Shown piece by piece: positions 7,566-31,254 of a DNA stretch of 49,564 nt. The notes below the pieces were generated by a model, which was given only the letters and a program-made list of their open reading frames with translations, was not told where the DNA came from and ran no database searches. This stretch comes from a bacterium (lineage in GTDB: Bacteria > Patescibacteriota > Patescibacteriia > Buchananbacterales > GWA2-38-13). The translations under genes and the position numbers were made by a program. Within the stretch, counting starts at the first letter, position 1. Every line of letters begins with the position of its first letter. The DNA lies in the NCBI GenBank assembly GCA_030648715.1, contig JAUSGZ010000007.1, positions 1-49,564 on the forward strand. The letters run 5' to 3'.

Positions 7566-9863
7566 ATGAAACATGAAACTCACAACATGAAACAAGGGAC
7601 GGAGAAGCAACCGCCGCAGTGTTCCATGTTCTATGTTCCATGTTCCAGGGGCCAACGGCGCGGCTACACGCTCCTGGAAACCATTCTCGCTATCGCCATC
7701 GTGGGCACGCTGGTGGTCGGTGTGCTGTCCGTGTTCAACTACGCCCTGGCGGTCATCGCCGAAACAAAGGCGCGTACGGGCGCGATCACTTTAGTTGAAC
7801 AGCAGCTGGAGATGGTGCGCAATCTTCCGTACGACGCCATCGGCACCACCGGCGGCATTCCGGCGGGACCTTTGCCGCAAACCCAGACCGTCACCCTGAA
7901 TAACGTCAGTTACACCATGACCATCCAGGCCGTCTACTTTGACGACCCGTTCGATGGCACGGTCGGCGGCGCGCCCAACGACCTGCTGGGCAACGACTAC
8001 AAAAAGGTCCGTATTGCGGCGGCCTGGCAAGGGCGATTCTCGGCAAAAACCTACGTCGGGCTGACCATTGTGGCCCCCAAGGGCGTGGAAACGAACGCCG
8101 GGGGCGGCACGCTCTCCATCCTGGTCTTTGATGCCGGCGGCGCCGGGGTGCCCCAGGCGGACGTGACGGTCGTCAACAGCCTGGTCAACCCGCCAGTCAA
8201 CCTGACGGTGCAAACGGATGCCAGCGGCCGCTACCTGCTGCCCGGGGCTCCAGCCTCGGTGAACGGCTACCAGGTCACTGCGACCAAGGCCGGCTTCAGC
8301 ACGGACAAGACCTGCACGACTGACCCGGCCGGGGCGGGCTGTAGCGGCGCCATCGGCAACCCGACGCCCACCAAGCCGCATGTCACGGTCATCGCTGGCC
8401 AACTGACCGATATCAGTTTCGCCATCGACCGGCTTTCCAGCATGGTCGTGCAGACCATCCGCCAACCCACCCCCAGCGATTGGGTCATTAATACCGGCGG
8501 TAACGGCTTTGACCAGGATAACCCGGCCATCGCCCTCTGCCCGAACGGCAACTACCTGTTCGTCTGGCGCGACGCCCGGCAGAACAACAATCCGCGCATC
8601 TATGCCCAGCAGTACACGCCGGCCAAAACCGCGGTGTGGAACCCCGACCTCGCCATTACCACGTCCAATAACCAGAACAACCCGGACGTGCAGCCGGACA
8701 GCAGCTGCAATATCTACTACGCCTGGCAGGACGACCGGAACGGCAACCAGGATATCTACTTCGACAAATACGATTCAGCGGGCGTGGATGCCTGGACCGA
8801 CGCCAAAAAAGTCAACGTCGCTGCGCAGAACGCCGACCAGACCTACCCGCAAGTCGTGGTCAACGCCAGCTCCACGTTCGAATACATCGTTTGGCAGGAC
8901 GCCTCGGCGGATGCCGGCGACATCTACGCTCAAAAGTTCGATACCGCCGGCGATCCGGTGTGGGGCAGCGAGGTCAAGGTCAACTCCGACGTCGGCGCGG
9001 CGACGCAATCGCTGCCGGTGCTCGCCTTGGACGTGGATGAGAATCTGATCTTGGTGTGGCATGATGACCGGGACGGCCACAACGATATCTTCGGCCAGAA
9101 ATTCACCAAAGACGGCGTTCGCCTGTGGTCGCCCGATAAAAAACTGAACACCGACAACGGCGCGACCGAACAGATCAACCCGGCGTTCGTTTTGGATGCC
9201 AGCGGCGTGTTCTACGCCGCGTGGGAGGACGGCCGCAACGGCGACAGCGACATCTACGCCCAGCGGTATGACGCCAACGGCGTTCCCCAATGGGGGCAAG
9301 ACGTGCGCGTCAACAGCGACCTCGGGACGGCCAACCAAGGCGACCCCTCTATCGTGCTTTCGGGCAACGGAACGCTGGTCATCGTCTGGGAAGACCACCG
9401 CAACGGCACCAACGACGTCTACCTGCAGCAGCTGGACAGCAACGGGACAAAATTGGTTCCCTTCGACACGCGCGTGAACAGCTCGACGAACGGCGAGCAG
9501 GAGAACCCCGAGGTAACCCTGAATGCGAGCGGGAAGATCGTCATCGTCTGGCAGGATAACTCGGAGGGCAACTTCGACATCCGCGCCGCCATCTACGACG
9601 ACAACCCGCAGACCGTCACGCCGGTCGCGAACGTGCCGTTCACGCTCCGGGGGAACAAACGCATTGGCGAAAACCCGGTCATTAATAAATACGTGCAGAC
9701 GCATACCACCGACGGCAGCGGCACCCTCACCATCCCTAATCTGGAGTGGGACCCCGGCTATACGCTCACACCCATCGGCTACACCCTCCTGCGCTCCGAA
9801 CCGGCGCAGCCAACCGCGCTTGATCCCAACACCACGCTGACGGTCATCCTCAATCTGCAATGA
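7566..9863 (+). CDS. giant pilin-like protein (PilV-like N-terminus + CarboxypepD_reg-like domains + seven-repeat propeller-like body)
   Basis: Class III signal and prepilin motif RRG|YTLLETILAIAIVG. The start is uncertain (ATG at 7566, 7587 or 7626). Seven repeats of the type (V/A)W.D.R.G..DIY.Q. CarboxypepD_reg-like stretch QTDASGRYLLPGAP..YQVTATKAGF. ATGA overlap with the next gene. Confidence 0.8.
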   Translation: MKHETHNMKQGTEKQPPQCSMFYVPCSRGQRRGYTLLETILAIAIVGTLVVGVLSVFNYALAVIAETKARTGAITLVEQQLEMVRNLPYDAIGTTGGIPAGPLPQTQTVTLNNVSYTMTIQAVYFDDPFDGTVGGAPNDLLGNDYKKVRIAAAWQGRFSAKTYVGLTIVAPKGVETNAGGGTLSILVFDAGGAGVPQADVTVVNSLVNPPVNLTVQTDASGRYLLPGAPASVNGYQVTATKAGFSTDKTCTTDPAGAGCSGAIGNPTPTKPHVTVIAGQLTDISFAIDRLSSMVVQTIRQPTPSDWVINTGGNGFDQDNPAIALCPNGNYLFVWRDARQNNNPRIYAQQYTPAKTAVWNPDLAITTSNNQNNPDVQPDSSCNIYYAWQDDRNGNQDIYFDKYDSAGVDAWTDAKKVNVAAQNADQTYPQVVVNASSTFEYIVWQDASADAGDIYAQKFDTAGDPVWGSEVKVNSDVGAATQSLPVLALDVDENLILVWHDDRDGHNDIFGQKFTKDGVRLWSPDKKLNTDNGATEQINPAFVLDASGVFYAAWEDGRNGDSDIYAQRYDANGVPQWGQDVRVNSDLGTANQGDPSIVLSGNGTLVIVWEDHRNGTNDVYLQQLDSNGTKLVPFDTRVNSSTNGEQENPEVTLNASGKIVIVWQDNSEGNFDIRAAIYDDNPQTVTPVANVPFTLRGNKRIGENPVINKYVQTHTTDGSGTLTIPNLEWDPGYTLTPIGYTLLRSEPAQPTALDPNTTLTVILNLQ

Positions 9864-10498
9864 GAATTTTGAAATTCAGAATTACCGGTTTGCCCCTTGT
9901 GGCACGGGCGGGACTGACCATCCTGGAGGTCGTCATCTCCATCGCGATCTTCACCACCGCGACGCTGATCATCGCCGGCTATATCGTCCAGGGTTACCGC
10001 GTCAACCGCTTCGCCATGGAACAAGCCGATGCCCTTGAGCATGCCCGCCGCGCCATGGACAGCATGGCCAAAGAGATCCGCGAGGCGGACTTTTCCGACC
10101 TCGGCAGCTACCCAATAGCCTCGGCGACCAACCAAAGCTTTTCGTTCTACAGCAACCTGGATGGCGACAACGCGGTGGAAAAGATCCGTTACTTCCTGGA
10201 GGGGACGAACTTCAACAAGGGGGTTATTGAACCGGGCGGCAACCCGCTGGCCTATAACCCCGCCGGCGAAAAGATCACCGTCATTTCGAGCTATGTACGC
10301 AACGGGGCCGACCCCATCTTCAACTACTACGACGGCAACTACCCCAGCTCCACCACCCCGCTTGCCGCGCCCGCGAATCCCAACCAGGTGAAGCTCATCC
10401 AGCTGAACCTGCGCGTCAACATCGACCCGAGCACCGCCCCCGACGACCTGACTCTGAACACGTTCGTCCAGATACGGAATTTGAAGGACAACTTATGA
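9860..10498 (+). CDS. minor pilin-like protein (PilW/GspJ-like)
   Basis: 212 aa. Prepilin motif ARAG|LTILEVVISIAIF with Glu5. ATGA overlaps at both ends. Confidence 0.75.
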   Translation: MRILKFRITGLPLVARAGLTILEVVISIAIFTTATLIIAGYIVQGYRVNRFAMEQADALEHARRAMDSMAKEIREADFSDLGSYPIASATNQSFSFYSNLDGDNAVEKIRYFLEGTNFNKGVIEPGGNPLAYNPAGEKITVISSYVRNGADPIFNYYDGNYPSSTTPLAAPANPNQVKLIQLNLRVNIDPSTAPDDLTLNTFVQIRNLKDNL

Positions 10499-14872: not shown

Positions 14873-15730
14873 CTACCAACGCTCGCCCGCCCTGCCCACG
14901 ATGATAGCAACCGGGGGGCTGGCGCGCAACAGCGTTTCCGTCACGTCATCCTTGGTCTTGCCGGCCAACGGCCAGTCGTGCACGGCCGACAGCAGCGTCG
15001 TTTCCGCGTAACGGTACTGCTCGCCGCGCTTGGTACCGGGGTCGTTCGTCACGAACTCGCGCCGCTCGGGGTCGTGGCCGCGCACCACCAGCATATGATA
15101 CAGCGGCCCCGGCTGGCGGAAGTACGGATTGCCGAGGTCCCGGCCGGCAAGCGGCAGCAGCACCAGCCGCCCCGCGGAGAGGTGCCCCCGGATGCTCTCG
15201 GCAGTCGGGTCGGATTCTACCGCGGCCGACAGCTGGAAATAATCGCGCAGGATGAGCGCGGTTTCGGCGGCCGTCACATCCACGCCGTAGCCGTTTACGG
15301 CTTCCCACTTCGCCAGATTCAATATCCCCTGCTCCATCAAGTGGGCATTCAACGACGCTCCCGAAAAAAATGCGTCCGCCATCAGCATCGACGCCTCTTC
15401 GCACGCCTCGTTATGCAATTCGTCCCACACCGCGTACGGAGCCTGCGGCGCGAACGGCACTGGCAAAATGAGCTGCCCCGAAACGGCGGACGGGGACGGG
15501 CTGGGACTGGGAAGCGGGGGCGGCAACGGCGAGGGCGTCGGACTGACCGGAGCGCTCGGTGAGGGCGCAGGCACCGACGGAGTTGTCCCGGGACTAGGCT
15601 CCGGAGATGGCGACCCCACCGGCACAGGGCTAACCGATGTCACTCCAGCTGCTCCATCCCTAACCGGGACCCGGCTGCAGCCGGCAAGGATCACCACGAA
15701 CGCCGCAAACACAAAACAACGAGTACGCAT
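14873..15730 (-). CDS. lipoprotein with Pro/Ser-rich linker and C39-like cysteine peptidase domain
   Basis: 285 aa. Lipobox VILAGC|S, then about 70 aa of P/S/V linker. C39_2-like core LPVPFAPQAPY...NEACEEASMLMA ... HMLVVRGHD ... NDP. Confidence 0.6.
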   Translation of the reverse strand: MRTRCFVFAAFVVILAGCSRVPVRDGAAGVTSVSPVPVGSPSPEPSPGTTPSVPAPSPSAPVSPTPSPLPPPLPSPSPSPSAVSGQLILPVPFAPQAPYAVWDELHNEACEEASMLMADAFFSGASLNAHLMEQGILNLAKWEAVNGYGVDVTAAETALILRDYFQLSAAVESDPTAESIRGHLSAGRLVLLPLAGRDLGNPYFRQPGPLYHMLVVRGHDPERREFVTNDPGTKRGEQYRYAETTLLSAVHDWPLAGKTKDDVTETLLRASPPVAIIVGRAGERW

Positions 15731-15871
15731 AGATCTATCCTAGCGGAATGCTCCCGCGCCGGCAATCAATGATTGACTTTCCGTTTGAACTGTGGTACGG
15801 TTCGTGGTCGCCTCAACTGGCGGCCTCAAAGCCACGAGATGTGTGGCTAGCACTTTTTCAAGGAGACACTA

Positions 15872-28855: not shown

Positions 28856-28896
28856 CCCGGCCGGGTCATTGTAGCGCGCGGGGTTATGCTACACTG
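28845..28896. promoter_or_regulatory. imperfect inverted repeat CAGTATAGCAT / ATGCTACACTG (10 of 11) in the divergent promoter spacer
   Basis: The left arm (28845-28855) covers the upstream ATG candidate of the GT-C-like gene. The right arm (28886-28896) contains an extended -10-like TGCTACACT on the plus strand. Confidence 0.3.
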
Positions 28897-28997
28897 GAAG
28901 CGTCTTCCGGTACACCAACGGGCCGTGCGAAAGGGGCAGAAACGGACGCCCCGCAACAAATCACCGCAACCTGAACCCACGCATTTGACCGTTGTCC

Positions 28998-29106
28998 CCG
29001 GGTATGCCCCATAGGACAATGGACTGACGAAAACGACTTGAGAATTGCGTCGAGGTCACGTACTTCATTACGAGAGCAAACACACCCGAGCATTGTACTA
29101 CGGGGT
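28998..29106 (+). promoter_or_regulatory. 109-nt conserved leader element, copy B (immediately upstream of the ATG at 29107)
   Basis: CCGGGTATGCCCCATAGGACA...TTGTACTACGGGGT-ATG. Same length, same termini and same position relative to the ATG as copy A (3814-3922, minus strand). Confidence 0.5.
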
Positions 29107-31254
29107 ATGCGCAAGCAACCTTCCTGGCTCCTGACGGCGCTGTTGATCGCCGCGGTCCTCGCCAACCTGCGCTGGCACAACGCCGGTATCGGGCTGACGT
29201 TTGGCGTTTTCTATTTCTTGTGGTGTGCCTGGCTGGCCGGCGGAGTGCTGGCGCCGAATGAACCCCGCCGCTGGCAGCTCGTGGCCGGACTCGTGGGAAA
29301 TCTCGCCCTCCTGACGGTGGTCGGGACGGCGGCCTACTGGCTATTCCGCCTCAATGGCACGGTCATCGCTGTCATTGCGATCGTCACGCCCTGCGTTTGG
29401 CTGACGTTGCCGCATGCGCCCGGCCGGCCGGGTTCCCCGATGTGGCAGCGCGACCCGTTGCGCGGTTTGCCGCGCACGATGGGCGTCACCACGTTCCTCC
29501 TGCTCGGGTTCATCGGACTACTGGCGCTTGCTATCCGACAACTGCTCGGCGCCCAAACGACGGAAGCGATCCGCACGCCGTGGCAGATCGTACCGCCGTC
29601 GTTTTGGGTCGGTTTCATCGGCGCGACGATGGCGCTGCTGGGCCTCCACCTCCGCACGGACCGGGCCGGCCGGCGGCTGCTCCTCACCCTGCTGCTGCTT
29701 GGCGTGGGCACCAGCGTCGCGCTGTCTGTCTATCCTCTCGGCTACGGCTATGACCCTTTCATCCACCAAGCGGCGGAACGAACGATCGCGGAAAGCGGTG
29801 TCATCACGCCGAAAACCCCCTACTACATCGGCCAATACGCGCTGGTCGTGCCGATCGCGCGGATCCTGGGCGTGGACGTCGTTGCGGTGGATCGCGTGAG
29901 CTCTCTCGCTGGCCTGCTGCTGATCGCGGCGCTCGCCTACTGGCCGTGGCGACGCTACCACCCCACTGCCGCTGCCCTGCCGCTGACTCTGCTGCTACTT
30001 CCGCTGGGCAGCCTCATCGCCACCACCCCGCAAGGGATGGCGAATCTCTGGCTGCTGGCGACTGCAACCATTGTGGCGCTGCCTTGGACGCCGGTTCCAC
30101 AGCCGCCGCAGCTACGGTGGCTGCCGATCGCCTTACTGACTGCCGGCGCCGCCAGCGCGACGCATCCAATCGCCGGCGTGCCCGCGCTCGCACTCGTGGC
30201 GTTCGGCTTGATCGCCGCTTGGCGACCCGCGACTTCCTATGTCGTCAAGTGGGGACCGCGTCTCGCAAGTGGCGCGGTCTTTGGCCTGACCGCCACGACT
30301 CTTCCCTTACTGTTCCTTCTTAACGCGCAACGCGCCGGCATTGCGCCATCAGAGGCATGGGAACCGCAGCCGCTCGGACAAATGATAGCCGCGACGGCCG
30401 CCGCCGCGCTCCCCCGATTCCCCGTAAGCACCGATCCCCTGCTGGATTTCGCGGCCGTCCTTGACCTCAACCGCGGGTGGCTCTTGGCGGTCGGCGCGGC
30501 GGCGGGCGCGTGGCTCGCCTGGTCACGAAAAAAACAGGCGGTGCTGCTACCAAGCGTGGCGACCAGCATCGCGTTATTGACAACCTACCTCGCGCTGCGA
30601 CAAATGCGTTTCCCGCAACTGATCGCTGATGAACAAGCGGTGTTCGGCCAACGCGTGCTGGAACTCGCGGGTTTTGTACTTCTTCCGCTCCTCATGGCCG
30701 GGGCGCAGATGCTGCTGGAACGCATGAGTCAGGAACGCGTACTGCGCGCCGCGGTTGTGGTGCTGGGGAGCGCGACGCTGGCGGCCGCCGTCTACTTGAA
30801 CTACCCCCGCGTCGACCGGTACCGCGTGGATCGCGGGTACAATCTCAGTGCCGCCGACGTGGCGGCGGTGCGGTTGGTCGCCGCGGACGCGCACGGCACC
30901 TACCTGGTGCTGGCCAACCAGATGACGTCGGCAGCCGCAATTCGCGAGTTCGGTTTTGCGCCCGCGTATCCCACGGCGGCCGATCCGCGACGAACGATGT
31001 ACACCTACCCCGTACCGACGGGGGAACCCCTGTACCAAAAATTTCTGGCAATGGTGCGCGAGGGGCCCGAGCGTTCCGTGGTACAAACGGCCGCGGCGCT
31101 GAGCGCAACCCCGATCAACACCGTCTACTTCATCCTGCCGCACTATTGGAACGACTTCGATCGCACCTCTGCGGCTGCCCAGGCAGCCGCAGACCAATGG
31201 TGGCCGCTGGATAACGGCAAGATCCTGGTCTTCCGCTACGACCTCGGGCGCTAA
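29107..31254 (+). CDS. large polytopic membrane protein (715 aa), possible GT-C-type transferase/polymerase, function unknown
   Basis: ATG at 29107 (MRKQPSWLLTALLIAAVL). The track start at 29038 is a TTG inside the conserved leader. More than 12 TM helices plus a C-terminal soluble domain. No diagnostic motif recognised. Confidence 0.65.
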   Translation: MRKQPSWLLTALLIAAVLANLRWHNAGIGLTFGVFYFLWCAWLAGGVLAPNEPRRWQLVAGLVGNLALLTVVGTAAYWLFRLNGTVIAVIAIVTPCVWLTLPHAPGRPGSPMWQRDPLRGLPRTMGVTTFLLLGFIGLLALAIRQLLGAQTTEAIRTPWQIVPPSFWVGFIGATMALLGLHLRTDRAGRRLLLTLLLLGVGTSVALSVYPLGYGYDPFIHQAAERTIAESGVITPKTPYYIGQYALVVPIARILGVDVVAVDRVSSLAGLLLIAALAYWPWRRYHPTAAALPLTLLLLPLGSLIATTPQGMANLWLLATATIVALPWTPVPQPPQLRWLPIALLTAGAASATHPIAGVPALALVAFGLIAAWRPATSYVVKWGPRLASGAVFGLTATTLPLLFLLNAQRAGIAPSEAWEPQPLGQMIAATAAAALPRFPVSTDPLLDFAAVLDLNRGWLLAVGAAAGAWLAWSRKKQAVLLPSVATSIALLTTYLALRQMRFPQLIADEQAVFGQRVLELAGFVLLPLLMAGAQMLLERMSQERVLRAAVVVLGSATLAAAVYLNYPRVDRYRVDRGYNLSAADVAAVRLVAADAHGTYLVLANQMTSAAAIREFGFAPAYPTAADPRRTMYTYPVPTGEPLYQKFLAMVREGPERSVVQTAAALSATPINTVYFILPHYWNDFDRTSAAAQAAADQWWPLDNGKILVFRYDLGR

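Follow-up and report, generated by a model that had tools for sequence, protein, structure and literature searches.

A small inverted-repeat element with start codons as its target, probably a miniature transposon that becomes a hairpin leader, in Parcubacteria

Two related segments of 109 nt, termed copies A and B, lie directly upstream of mraY and of the gene for a 715-aa polytopic membrane protein in contig JAUSGZ010000007.1 (assembly GCA_030648715.1), of which the 49,564-nt stretch analyzed here is referred to as the window. Our analysis indicates, with a probability that we estimate at roughly 0.7, that both copies are insertions of a small, non-autonomous element of the MITE (for miniature inverted-repeat transposable element) type, which has a gene's start codon as its target and becomes a hairpin leader of that gene. 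An earlier note had interpreted the two copies as a shared leader that co-regulates consumers of the undecaprenyl-phosphate carrier. This hypothesis of a carrier-lipid regulon is removed by the data presented below, and a documented repeat family of Parcubacteria takes its place.

The description of the two copies on which the earlier note was based proved accurate. Direct reading of the sequence showed that both copies, counted from the initial C of CCGGGTATGCCCC up to the nucleotide preceding the ATG, measure 109 nt, that positions 1 to 13 and 15 to 21 are the same in A and B, that 31 of the 39 leading positions match, and that the final 14 nt plus the ATG are shared. The pair changes from A to B (C23-G95 to U23-A95, and G22-U96 to A22-U96) and the extra mismatch of copy B (A14 opposite C104) were also confirmed. 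The similarity of the repeated termini exceeds that expected by chance. In pattern searches, TGTACTACGGGGTATG had two exact matches in the window, as compared to 0.17 expected per shuffle at ≤3 mismatches, and CCGGGTATGCCCCRTAGGACA had two matches with 0.00 expected. The termini were paired in the predicted folds of both copies, with -39 kcal/mol (z = -4.0) for copy A and -27.8 kcal/mol (z = -0.8) for copy B, the latter fold being weaker because copy B contains two extra mismatches. A covariance model built from 11 sequences identified A and B as the only full copies in the window, with a score of 105 bits for copy A, and additionally matched one decayed partial copy, B0, at positions 28916-28994 (13.7 bits, E = 0.044). 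The arm remnant of B0, CCGTTGTCC--CCGGG in the window, corresponds to CGCTGTACCACGAGG in the orthologous locus L010.

To retrieve further copies, species-representative genomes were scanned with a two-arm pattern and Joint Genome Institute (JGI) metagenomes with a looser one, and orthologous loci were fetched via MraY, the 715-aa protein, and QueA. The two-arm pattern revealed three more copies in the metagenome-assembled genome (MAG) "Parcubacteria group bacterium Gr01-1014_31" and, in its strict form, had no match in JGI metagenomes and viral contigs. The looser pattern gave four matches in the JGI metagenomes, of which L014 was a real copy; the remaining three (L012, L013, and L015) were rejected as chance matches. 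Neither copy A nor copy B matched plasmid or phage sequences in blastn searches. The additional copies are L001, L002a, L002b, L003 (corresponding to L022 9900-9999), L022b, L022c, and L014, resulting in a total of nine independent loci that belong to the window lineage, the MAG Gr01-1014_31 lineage, and one JGI contig. Orthologues were found for copy A in L004 and L005 (MraY 96% identical), for copy B in L010 (88% identity of the 715-aa homologue), and for the queA copy in L021 (QueA 87% identical). As is typical of MITEs, there are several dispersed copies per genome: two plus one decayed copy in the 49.6 kb of the window, three in the 21 kb of L022 (a stretch of the MAG lineage that harbors L022b and L022c), and six loci in the MAG lineage. 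The ATGs that touch the element belong to the genes for MraY, the 715-aa membrane protein with a GT-C fold, a 191-aa hypothetical protein, MerR, QueA, a type IV secretion system (T4SS)-pilin-like protein, an AI-2E transporter, and a beta-lactamase2/S11 peptidase. These genes have no function in common. The covariance model had no match in relatives without the arms. Nothing relevant was found in Rfam, either at gathering thresholds over the whole window or at permissive thresholds around copy B, and a search for tRNA and tmRNA genes returned none.

All copies share the same layout in the gene-sense direction, namely TATG, a 16-nt distal arm, an interior of 66 to 70 nt, a 16-nt proximal arm, and TATG followed by the open reading frame (ORF). 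The element is 98 to 102 nt long, and the spacing between the arms, from start to start, is 82 to 86 nt. The arms constitute terminal inverted repeats, a feature of MITEs, with the consensus CCCCGTAG(G/T)ACAACGG ... CCGTTGT(A/C)CTACGGGG. Between loci, the arms are 85 to 87% identical and the interiors 39%. Over the 11 sequences, the arms pair across 15 positions, and 92% of the cells are paired, as compared to 30 to 52% when the partner strand is slid. Two pairs covary, with CG in seven and GC in four sequences for one, and CG in eight and UA in three for the other. The proposal that the termini form a conserved helix was thus strengthened, since the U-A replacement of copy B recurs independently in L014 and a second pair covaries. 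The ninth arm position is unpaired in 11/11 sequences (three loci have G.A and six have U.C), and the flanking UAUG repeats add U.G, A-U, U-A, and G.U pairs in the sense RNA. Fold z-scores ranged from -3.9 to -5.5 for all copies but copy B. Single changes in the helix of the gene-sense RNA produced seven wobble pairs versus two A.C mismatches (p about 0.09).

The interiors, when folded alone, were no more structured than shuffled sequence (z of -1.8 to +1.75). Their G+C content is 42 to 55%, as compared to 62% in the window, and the gene-sense strand is richer in A than in T in each of the six gene-abutting copies tested. A motif, RCTGGCG ... GAAG(A)AC, is common to the interiors and follows the distal arm. 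No reading frame, antisense ORFs included, is conserved between orthologous copies, and no transposase gene is present within the 98 to 102 nt of the element. Three other readings of this region were rejected. The upstream ORF that opens at the distal ATG has neither a constant length nor a constant frame, and orthologues do not share it. For a guide or antisense RNA encoded by the interior, no complementarity of at least 14 nt to the flanks or to other loci was found. A local 4-bp hairpin in each arm (CCGT/ACGG), resembling a repetitive extragenic palindromic (REP) unit, is interrupted in several of the copies; 85% of its cells are paired, and there is no net covariation.

Evidence for mobility comes from the sequences flanking the element. 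TATG is present on both flanks in 10 of the 11 copies, forming a 4-bp direct repeat. At the AI-2E transporter gene, the filled site in L022 reads GCGTACAATGAGGG-TATG-[101 nt]-TATG-CAAC and the empty site in L021 reads GCGTACAATGAGGG-CATG-CAAC; read against each other, the two sequences represent an insertion with a 4-bp duplication that takes in the start codon. Further empty sites were identified. The mraY site lacks the element in five relatives, whose MraY proteins are 89, 88, 83, 81, and 77% identical and whose stop-to-start spacers (103, 1, 60, 28, and 239 nt, respectively) are unrelated to the element. The element is likewise absent from the copy B site in L011, where the GT-C protein is 64% identical, and from the queA site in L023. 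Two tandem arrangements were observed, L002a with L002b and B0 with B. Taken together, the features by which MITEs can be recognized in sequence comparisons, namely inverted repeats, target duplication, small size, absence of a transposase gene, several copies, and empty sites, were all found.

The reconstructed insertion sites share a bias in their flanks, with GGG or SGG 5' of the duplicated TATG in six of eight and C 3' of it in seven of eight. These flanks look like two joined element ends (GGGG-TATG-CCCC), and this resemblance may be the reason for the tandem insertions. The 239-nt spacer 5' of mraY in L019, from which the element is absent, contains at 9790-9930 a different long inverted repeat (GAATTCCAAATTTCGG … CGAAATTTGGAAC), which may represent another palindromic repeat family at the same site. 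An 11-nt match 5' of mraY in L019 was considered as a remnant of copy A and rejected, since it was within chance.

The position of the element relative to genes is not random. At 8/8 independent insertion sites, a gene's start codon is contained in the proximal TATG, whereas 17 of the 53 TATG sites in the window that do not lie wholly within a gene are start codons (p about 1e-4). Furthermore, 8/8 gene-abutting copies have one orientation relative to the gene. The interiors can be aligned, weakly but significantly, only with all copies in gene sense (mean z of 1.78 versus 0.13); 29 of the 36 interior pairs favor the sense orientation, and the best pairs reach z = 3.7 to 4.4. This comparison overturned a reading in which copies occur in both orientations, derived from a single G/T asymmetry of the arms that is swapped between the window and most MAG copies. 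As judged by the aligned sequences, the orientation is uniform, and what differs is whether the conserved mismatch is G.A or U.C. The earlier note had reasoned that copies in random position and orientation would favor a selfish, MITE-like repeat; the mobile nature of the element was borne out, but its placement at the start codon and its uniform orientation are non-random.

The genes of the window lack a Shine-Dalgarno motif. Of 27 ATG starts, 17 are TATG. The clade likewise has no Shine-Dalgarno sequences; T is its usual base at -1, and its promoters often lie only 6 to 12 nt 5' of the ATG. In relatives free of the element, the promoter lies close to the ATG (TACAAT-GAGGGC-ATG in L021, and TTGACA-17-TACCAT-12 nt-ATG in L023). 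Where the element is present, promoter-like sequences lie outside it. At the queA copy, TTGACA-17-TACGAT ends 11 nt before the distal TATG; in L022b, TACAAT ends 6 nt before the ATG (5 nt before TATG); and in L014, TGTATAAT ends 8 nt before the distal TATG. A consensus scan detected no sigma-70-like promoter within copies A, B, or the queA copy. Copies A and L022c are located inside operons and exactly fill the stop-to-start spacer. The element thus separates the ATG from the promoter or from the upstream cistron, in the same orientation in each case, and should therefore be transcribed as a leader or an intercistronic segment. Judging by its position, the hairpin would be located at or near the 5' end of the RNA, with the AUG at its 3' foot; it may form in vivo and may affect translation or mRNA stability. 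As a general observation, the bases directly 5' of the ATG are pyrimidine-rich across the window, and -10-like hexamers occur 6 to 12 nt 5' of the ATG at several of its genes, among them TAGGAT, 6 nt 5' of the gene at 15730 on the minus strand (region 15731-15745). These features of the window suggest that leaderless or near-leaderless mRNAs may be widespread in this clade of Parcubacteria.

We propose the following mechanism. The element would insert into a TATG that contains the start codon of a gene and would duplicate this tetranucleotide. The duplication regenerates an intact start codon, and the gene would therefore survive the insertion. Once inserted, the element would separate the promoter, or the upstream cistron, from the ATG and thereby give rise to a leader RNA. 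In this RNA, the arms and the two UAUG repeats are predicted to pair into a helix of ~20 bp with one conserved 1x1 mismatch and with the AUG at its 3' foot, closing an unstructured, A-rich loop of ~67 nt. Such a hairpin could act as a 5'-terminal stabilizer, as an RNase III-type processing site, or as a mask of the start codon. Any effect of the hairpin would be generic to whichever gene was struck and would not amount to a carrier-lipid regulon.

Orthologous copies have diverged little. Copy A and its orthologue differ at 12 of 109 positions (7 of 67 in the interior), whereas four-fold degenerate sites in the genes on either side differ by 27% (p = 0.004). For copy B and its orthologue in L010, the difference amounts to 6 of ~100 positions (4 of 67 in the interior), versus 25 to 33% at four-fold degenerate sites (p = 1e-5). 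Neither pair contains indels, whereas the neighboring B0 stretch differs between the window and L010 by 21% substitutions plus indels.

Several points weigh against the interpretation of the copies as MITE-type insertions or against the constraint just described. The filled mraY site has an extra CCGGG when compared to the nearest empty site, TAG-TATG in L009. No transposase or autonomous partner with the same arms was detected in the fetched loci or the scanned window ORFs, the whole genomes being outside this search. The interiors are far more diverged between loci than in typical MITE families, yet their length is held within 2 nt; this combination is more in line with prolonged residence under selection than with a recent burst. 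The sample is also small, comprising nine loci out of about 170 kb of sequence. Finally, the queA copy shows no difference between L021 and L022 over 108 positions but is located inside a tract of ~330 nt with 97 to 100% identity. A comparison of L021 with L022 (9728-11400) revealed a mosaic of tracts with 97 to 100% and with 64 to 75% identity, each a few hundred bases long, which points to frequent homologous recombination between these populations. Because the tract is of this recombination-like kind, the identity of the queA copy cannot serve as evidence of constraint, and recombination could partly explain the low divergence of the orthologous copies in general.

The alternative that retains a mobile origin is domestication, in which the gene-proximal copies have been co-opted and are now kept by the host as elements of the 5' untranslated region (UTR) or of intercistronic segments. 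We consider such co-option possible, albeit short of probable. Conceivable roles are those of a 5'-terminal stabilizer hairpin, of a site for RNase III-type processing from which a near-leaderless mRNA would emerge, or of a ribosome standby loop where, as in this clade, Shine-Dalgarno sequences are lacking. Compared with four-fold degenerate sites, orthologous copies change at a rate 2.5 to 5 times lower and without indels, while the non-proximal B0 decays, and the mosaics produced by recombination confound this argument. The uniform orientation is also consistent with co-option, but oriented insertion into the asymmetric TATG could give the same result. The A-rich, unstructured loop on the sense strand, the one mismatch that is kept in the two forms G.A and U.C, and the exact filling of the stop-start spacer by the operon-internal copies A and L022c point in the same direction, as does the 7 to 2 ratio of wobble pairs to A.C mismatches on the sense strand, which is not significant (p about 0.09). 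An RNA role of this kind is drawn from sequence. At its most tentative, this line of thought leads to a transposable hairpin that homes to start codons in a fixed orientation, gives genes without a Shine-Dalgarno sequence, often leaderless ones, a structured leader, and is kept by purifying selection as a movable module of post-transcriptional control or processing in bacteria of the candidate phyla radiation (CPR); we regard this extended proposal as speculative. Far less probable is a dedicated, riboswitch- or thermometer-like cis-regulatory RNA leader through which MraY and the glycan-cluster protein would be co-regulated on account of their common use of undecaprenyl phosphate. It would agree with a helix that sequesters the AUG, with the two covarying pairs in the closing helix, with the sense orientation within the 5' UTR, and with the fact that the GT-C fold group of the 715-aa protein includes ArnT, the structure of which was solved with bound undecaprenyl phosphate. 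However, the other copies adjoin genes for QueA, MerR, the AI-2E transporter, the peptidase, the pilin-like protein, and the hypothetical protein, which belong to no single pathway. The element is not conserved at orthologous genes, being absent 5' of mraY in the five relatives and of the GT-C gene in L011, and the target duplication and the empty site also speak against such a leader. Moreover, the interior, where a ligand-binding or sensor core would be located, is 39% identical and unstructured, and no Rfam family was matched. The unrelated adjoining genes, the empty mraY sites, and the target duplication with its empty site thus contradict the earlier idea of a leader shared by carrier-lipid consumers.

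Two further alternatives concern the mode of movement. In the model of REP doublets forming hairpins (REPINs), an HUH tyrosine transposase encoded in single copy, the REP-associated tyrosine transposase (RAYT), moves an inverted REP-like doublet in the form of single-stranded DNA, with vertical inheritance. The layout observed here matches that reported for REPINs, with inverted conserved 16-mers, a spacer of kept length, hairpin potential, and compensatory changes (PMC3116915); in addition, each arm contains GTAG or CTAC, and copies persist at orthologous sites. A REP unit, in turn, consists of a terminal unpaired GTAG followed by its own stem-loop of 6 to 13 bp, and the arms do not conform to this definition, as their GTAG lies inside the long-range helix and the sole local stem has 4 bp and is broken by variation (PMC3733652). 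The copies are also located 5' of genes rather than mostly 3', and no RAYT gene was seen in the fetched loci, which is a weak test. A 4-bp direct target duplication is present, and HUH single-strand transposition is not known to make one. We therefore consider REPIN-type movement unlikely. An inverton, i.e., an invertible promoter, or an attC-like site would use the arms as recombinase targets for flipping or exchanging the interior. Compatible with this idea are the inverted repeats around a short, AT-richer segment directly 5' of genes, several of which are envelope-related, and the occurrence of the arm mismatch in two forms that are swapped relative to the interior. Nevertheless, the interior is in gene sense in 11/11 sequences, three orthologous pairs included, and the promoters lie outside copies A, B, and the queA copy, which contain no sigma-70-like promoter. 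There is no recombinase among the window ORFs scanned, nor was an integrase seen. The termini read CCCCGTAG ... CTACGGGG without the RYYYAAC/GTTRRRY boxes of attC, and the element is found 5' of core genes (mraY and queA), not 3' of cassettes. Both models also leave the target duplication and the empty site unexplained, and we judge them very unlikely.

The coordinates of the copies and of the adjoining features are compiled in Table 1.

Table 1. Features of copies A, B, and B0 and of the genes and putative promoters next to them, in window coordinates
Feature	Position	Strand	Remarks
Copy B	28998-29106	+	next base begins ATG at 29107
Copy B, distal TATG	29003-29006	+	distal half of the 4-bp target duplication; direct reading
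Copy B, distal 16-nt arm CCCCATAGGACAATGG	29007-29022	+	pairs with 29090-29105
Copy B, interior (67 nt)	29023-29089	+	A-rich, weakly structured; opens with motif ACTGACGAAAAC
Copy B, proximal 16-nt arm GCATTGTACTACGGGG	29090-29105	+	pairs with distal arm
Copy B, proximal TATG	29106-29109	+	ATG 29107-29109 is the start of the 715-aa gene
B0	28909-29002 (about)	+	decayed older copy directly 5' of copy B, same orientation; tandem insertion
Copy A	3922-3814	-	next base begins mraY ATG at 3813
Copy A, flank CCGGG	3922-3918	-	
Copy A, distal TATG	3917-3914	-	
Copy A, distal arm	3913-3898	-	
Copy A, interior	3897-3831	-	
Copy A, proximal arm	3830-3815	-	
Copy A, T of proximal TATG	3814	-	followed by ATG 3813-3811
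Putative divergent promoter block	28868-28895	.	5' of B0 and B; direct reading; kept in L010
TACAAT	28873-28868	-	putative promoter; 12 nt before ATG (28855) of PMT_2-like gene
TACACT	28890-28895	+	putative promoter; faces B0, B, and the 715-aa gene
mraY	2677-3813	-	Pfam Glycos_transf_4 and MraY_sig1; start codon inside proximal TATG of copy A
715-aa polytopic membrane protein gene	29107-31254	+	GT-C glycosyltransferase fold

The ATG at 3813 is the true start of MraY, as shown by 11 homologues whose N-termini align with it; the extra length of the window protein is C-terminal. This C-terminal extension comprises about 30 residues (…VVPSKKNPPSAGAAQLWPPDGGASTVKVP; 2677-2770, minus strand) and is common only to the 96%-identical relative. 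An ORF of 119 to 147 aa on the opposite strand lies between murD and mraY in every relative examined and has no Pfam match (window, 2277-2636; L004, 2562-2933; L009, 1571-2014; L006, 11234-11632). A candidate operon promoter, TGGACA-18-TAAAAT, occupies 4390-4361 (minus strand). Downstream of it, immediately ahead of the 119-aa gene located 5' of mraY, lies a conserved hairpin that has a U-tract, CCGCCA…TGGCGGCTTTTTT (region about 4302-4390, minus strand); the hairpin is kept in L004 and looks like an attenuator or a leader terminator.

The 715-aa protein had no match to a Pfam or NCBIfam family. About 70 homologues were found, nearly all of them in Patescibacteria, and these cover 100% of the protein from the start at 29107. 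Its AlphaFold2 model (predicted local distance difference test [pLDDT] score of 89) had AftA, STT3, PglB, and ArnT as top Foldseek matches, and the protein looks like a member of an uncatalogued GT-C family. Given the GT-C fold of the model, the earlier guess that the donor is lipid linked, i.e., a polyprenyl-phosphate derivative, is plausible. The gene is surrounded by dTDP-rhamnose genes and by genes for GT4 and GT2 transferases, a Wzy_C protein, and a Bac_transf priming transferase.

Our literature search found no earlier description of such elements in Parcubacteria. The closest counterparts among known systems are chiefly the Correia/NEMIS elements of Neisseria, and also the RUP and ERIC elements, which are bacterial MITEs that become hairpins within mRNAs (PMC3184786). 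The family described here resembles them in its size class (about 100 to 150 nt), terminal inverted repeats, short target duplication, many dispersed copies that are often on the 5' side of genes, and predicted long RNA hairpins upon co-transcription, and the known elements can alter the expression of neighboring genes. There is no sequence similarity to these elements, however, and the target is TA in Correia elements, whereas it is TATG with the start codon here. The orientation is fixed in the present family, its interiors are nearly unalignable with a length held within 2 nt, an internal promoter was not detectable, and the host is a Parcubacteria (CPR) lineage with Shine-Dalgarno-less, often near-leaderless genes.

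REPINs consist of two invariant, inverted 16-mers and a less conserved spacer of kept length, with hairpin potential and compensatory changes (PMC3116915). The present element shares with them the inverted, conserved 16-mers, the variable spacer of kept length, the changes that keep the hairpin, and the long persistence at orthologous sites. It differs in that its arms are not self-folding REP units, that a target duplication is present, that no RAYT was identified in the fetched loci, and that copies are placed at start codons, whereas REPINs are scattered through extragenic space. Another parallel is provided by the REP2 repeats of Neisseria and the IR-A repeats of Borrelia, which equip unrelated genes with an ATG and with upstream signals for expression (PMC3184786). 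In both cases a dispersed repeat lies directly 5' of unrelated ORFs, with the initiation codon within the repeated unit. REP2 and IR-A carry a promoter and a ribosome-binding site, neither of which is recognizable here, and the element described here is palindromic and has insertion signatures. If the hairpin is functional, the family would represent a mobile element that rewrites the architecture of translation initiation in organisms without Shine-Dalgarno sequences, and it would offer a simple sequence handle on gene expression in uncultured CPR bacteria. What sets the family apart among bacterial MITEs is the start codon in the target duplication, the fixed orientation toward the gene, and the site between a near-leaderless promoter and the ATG.

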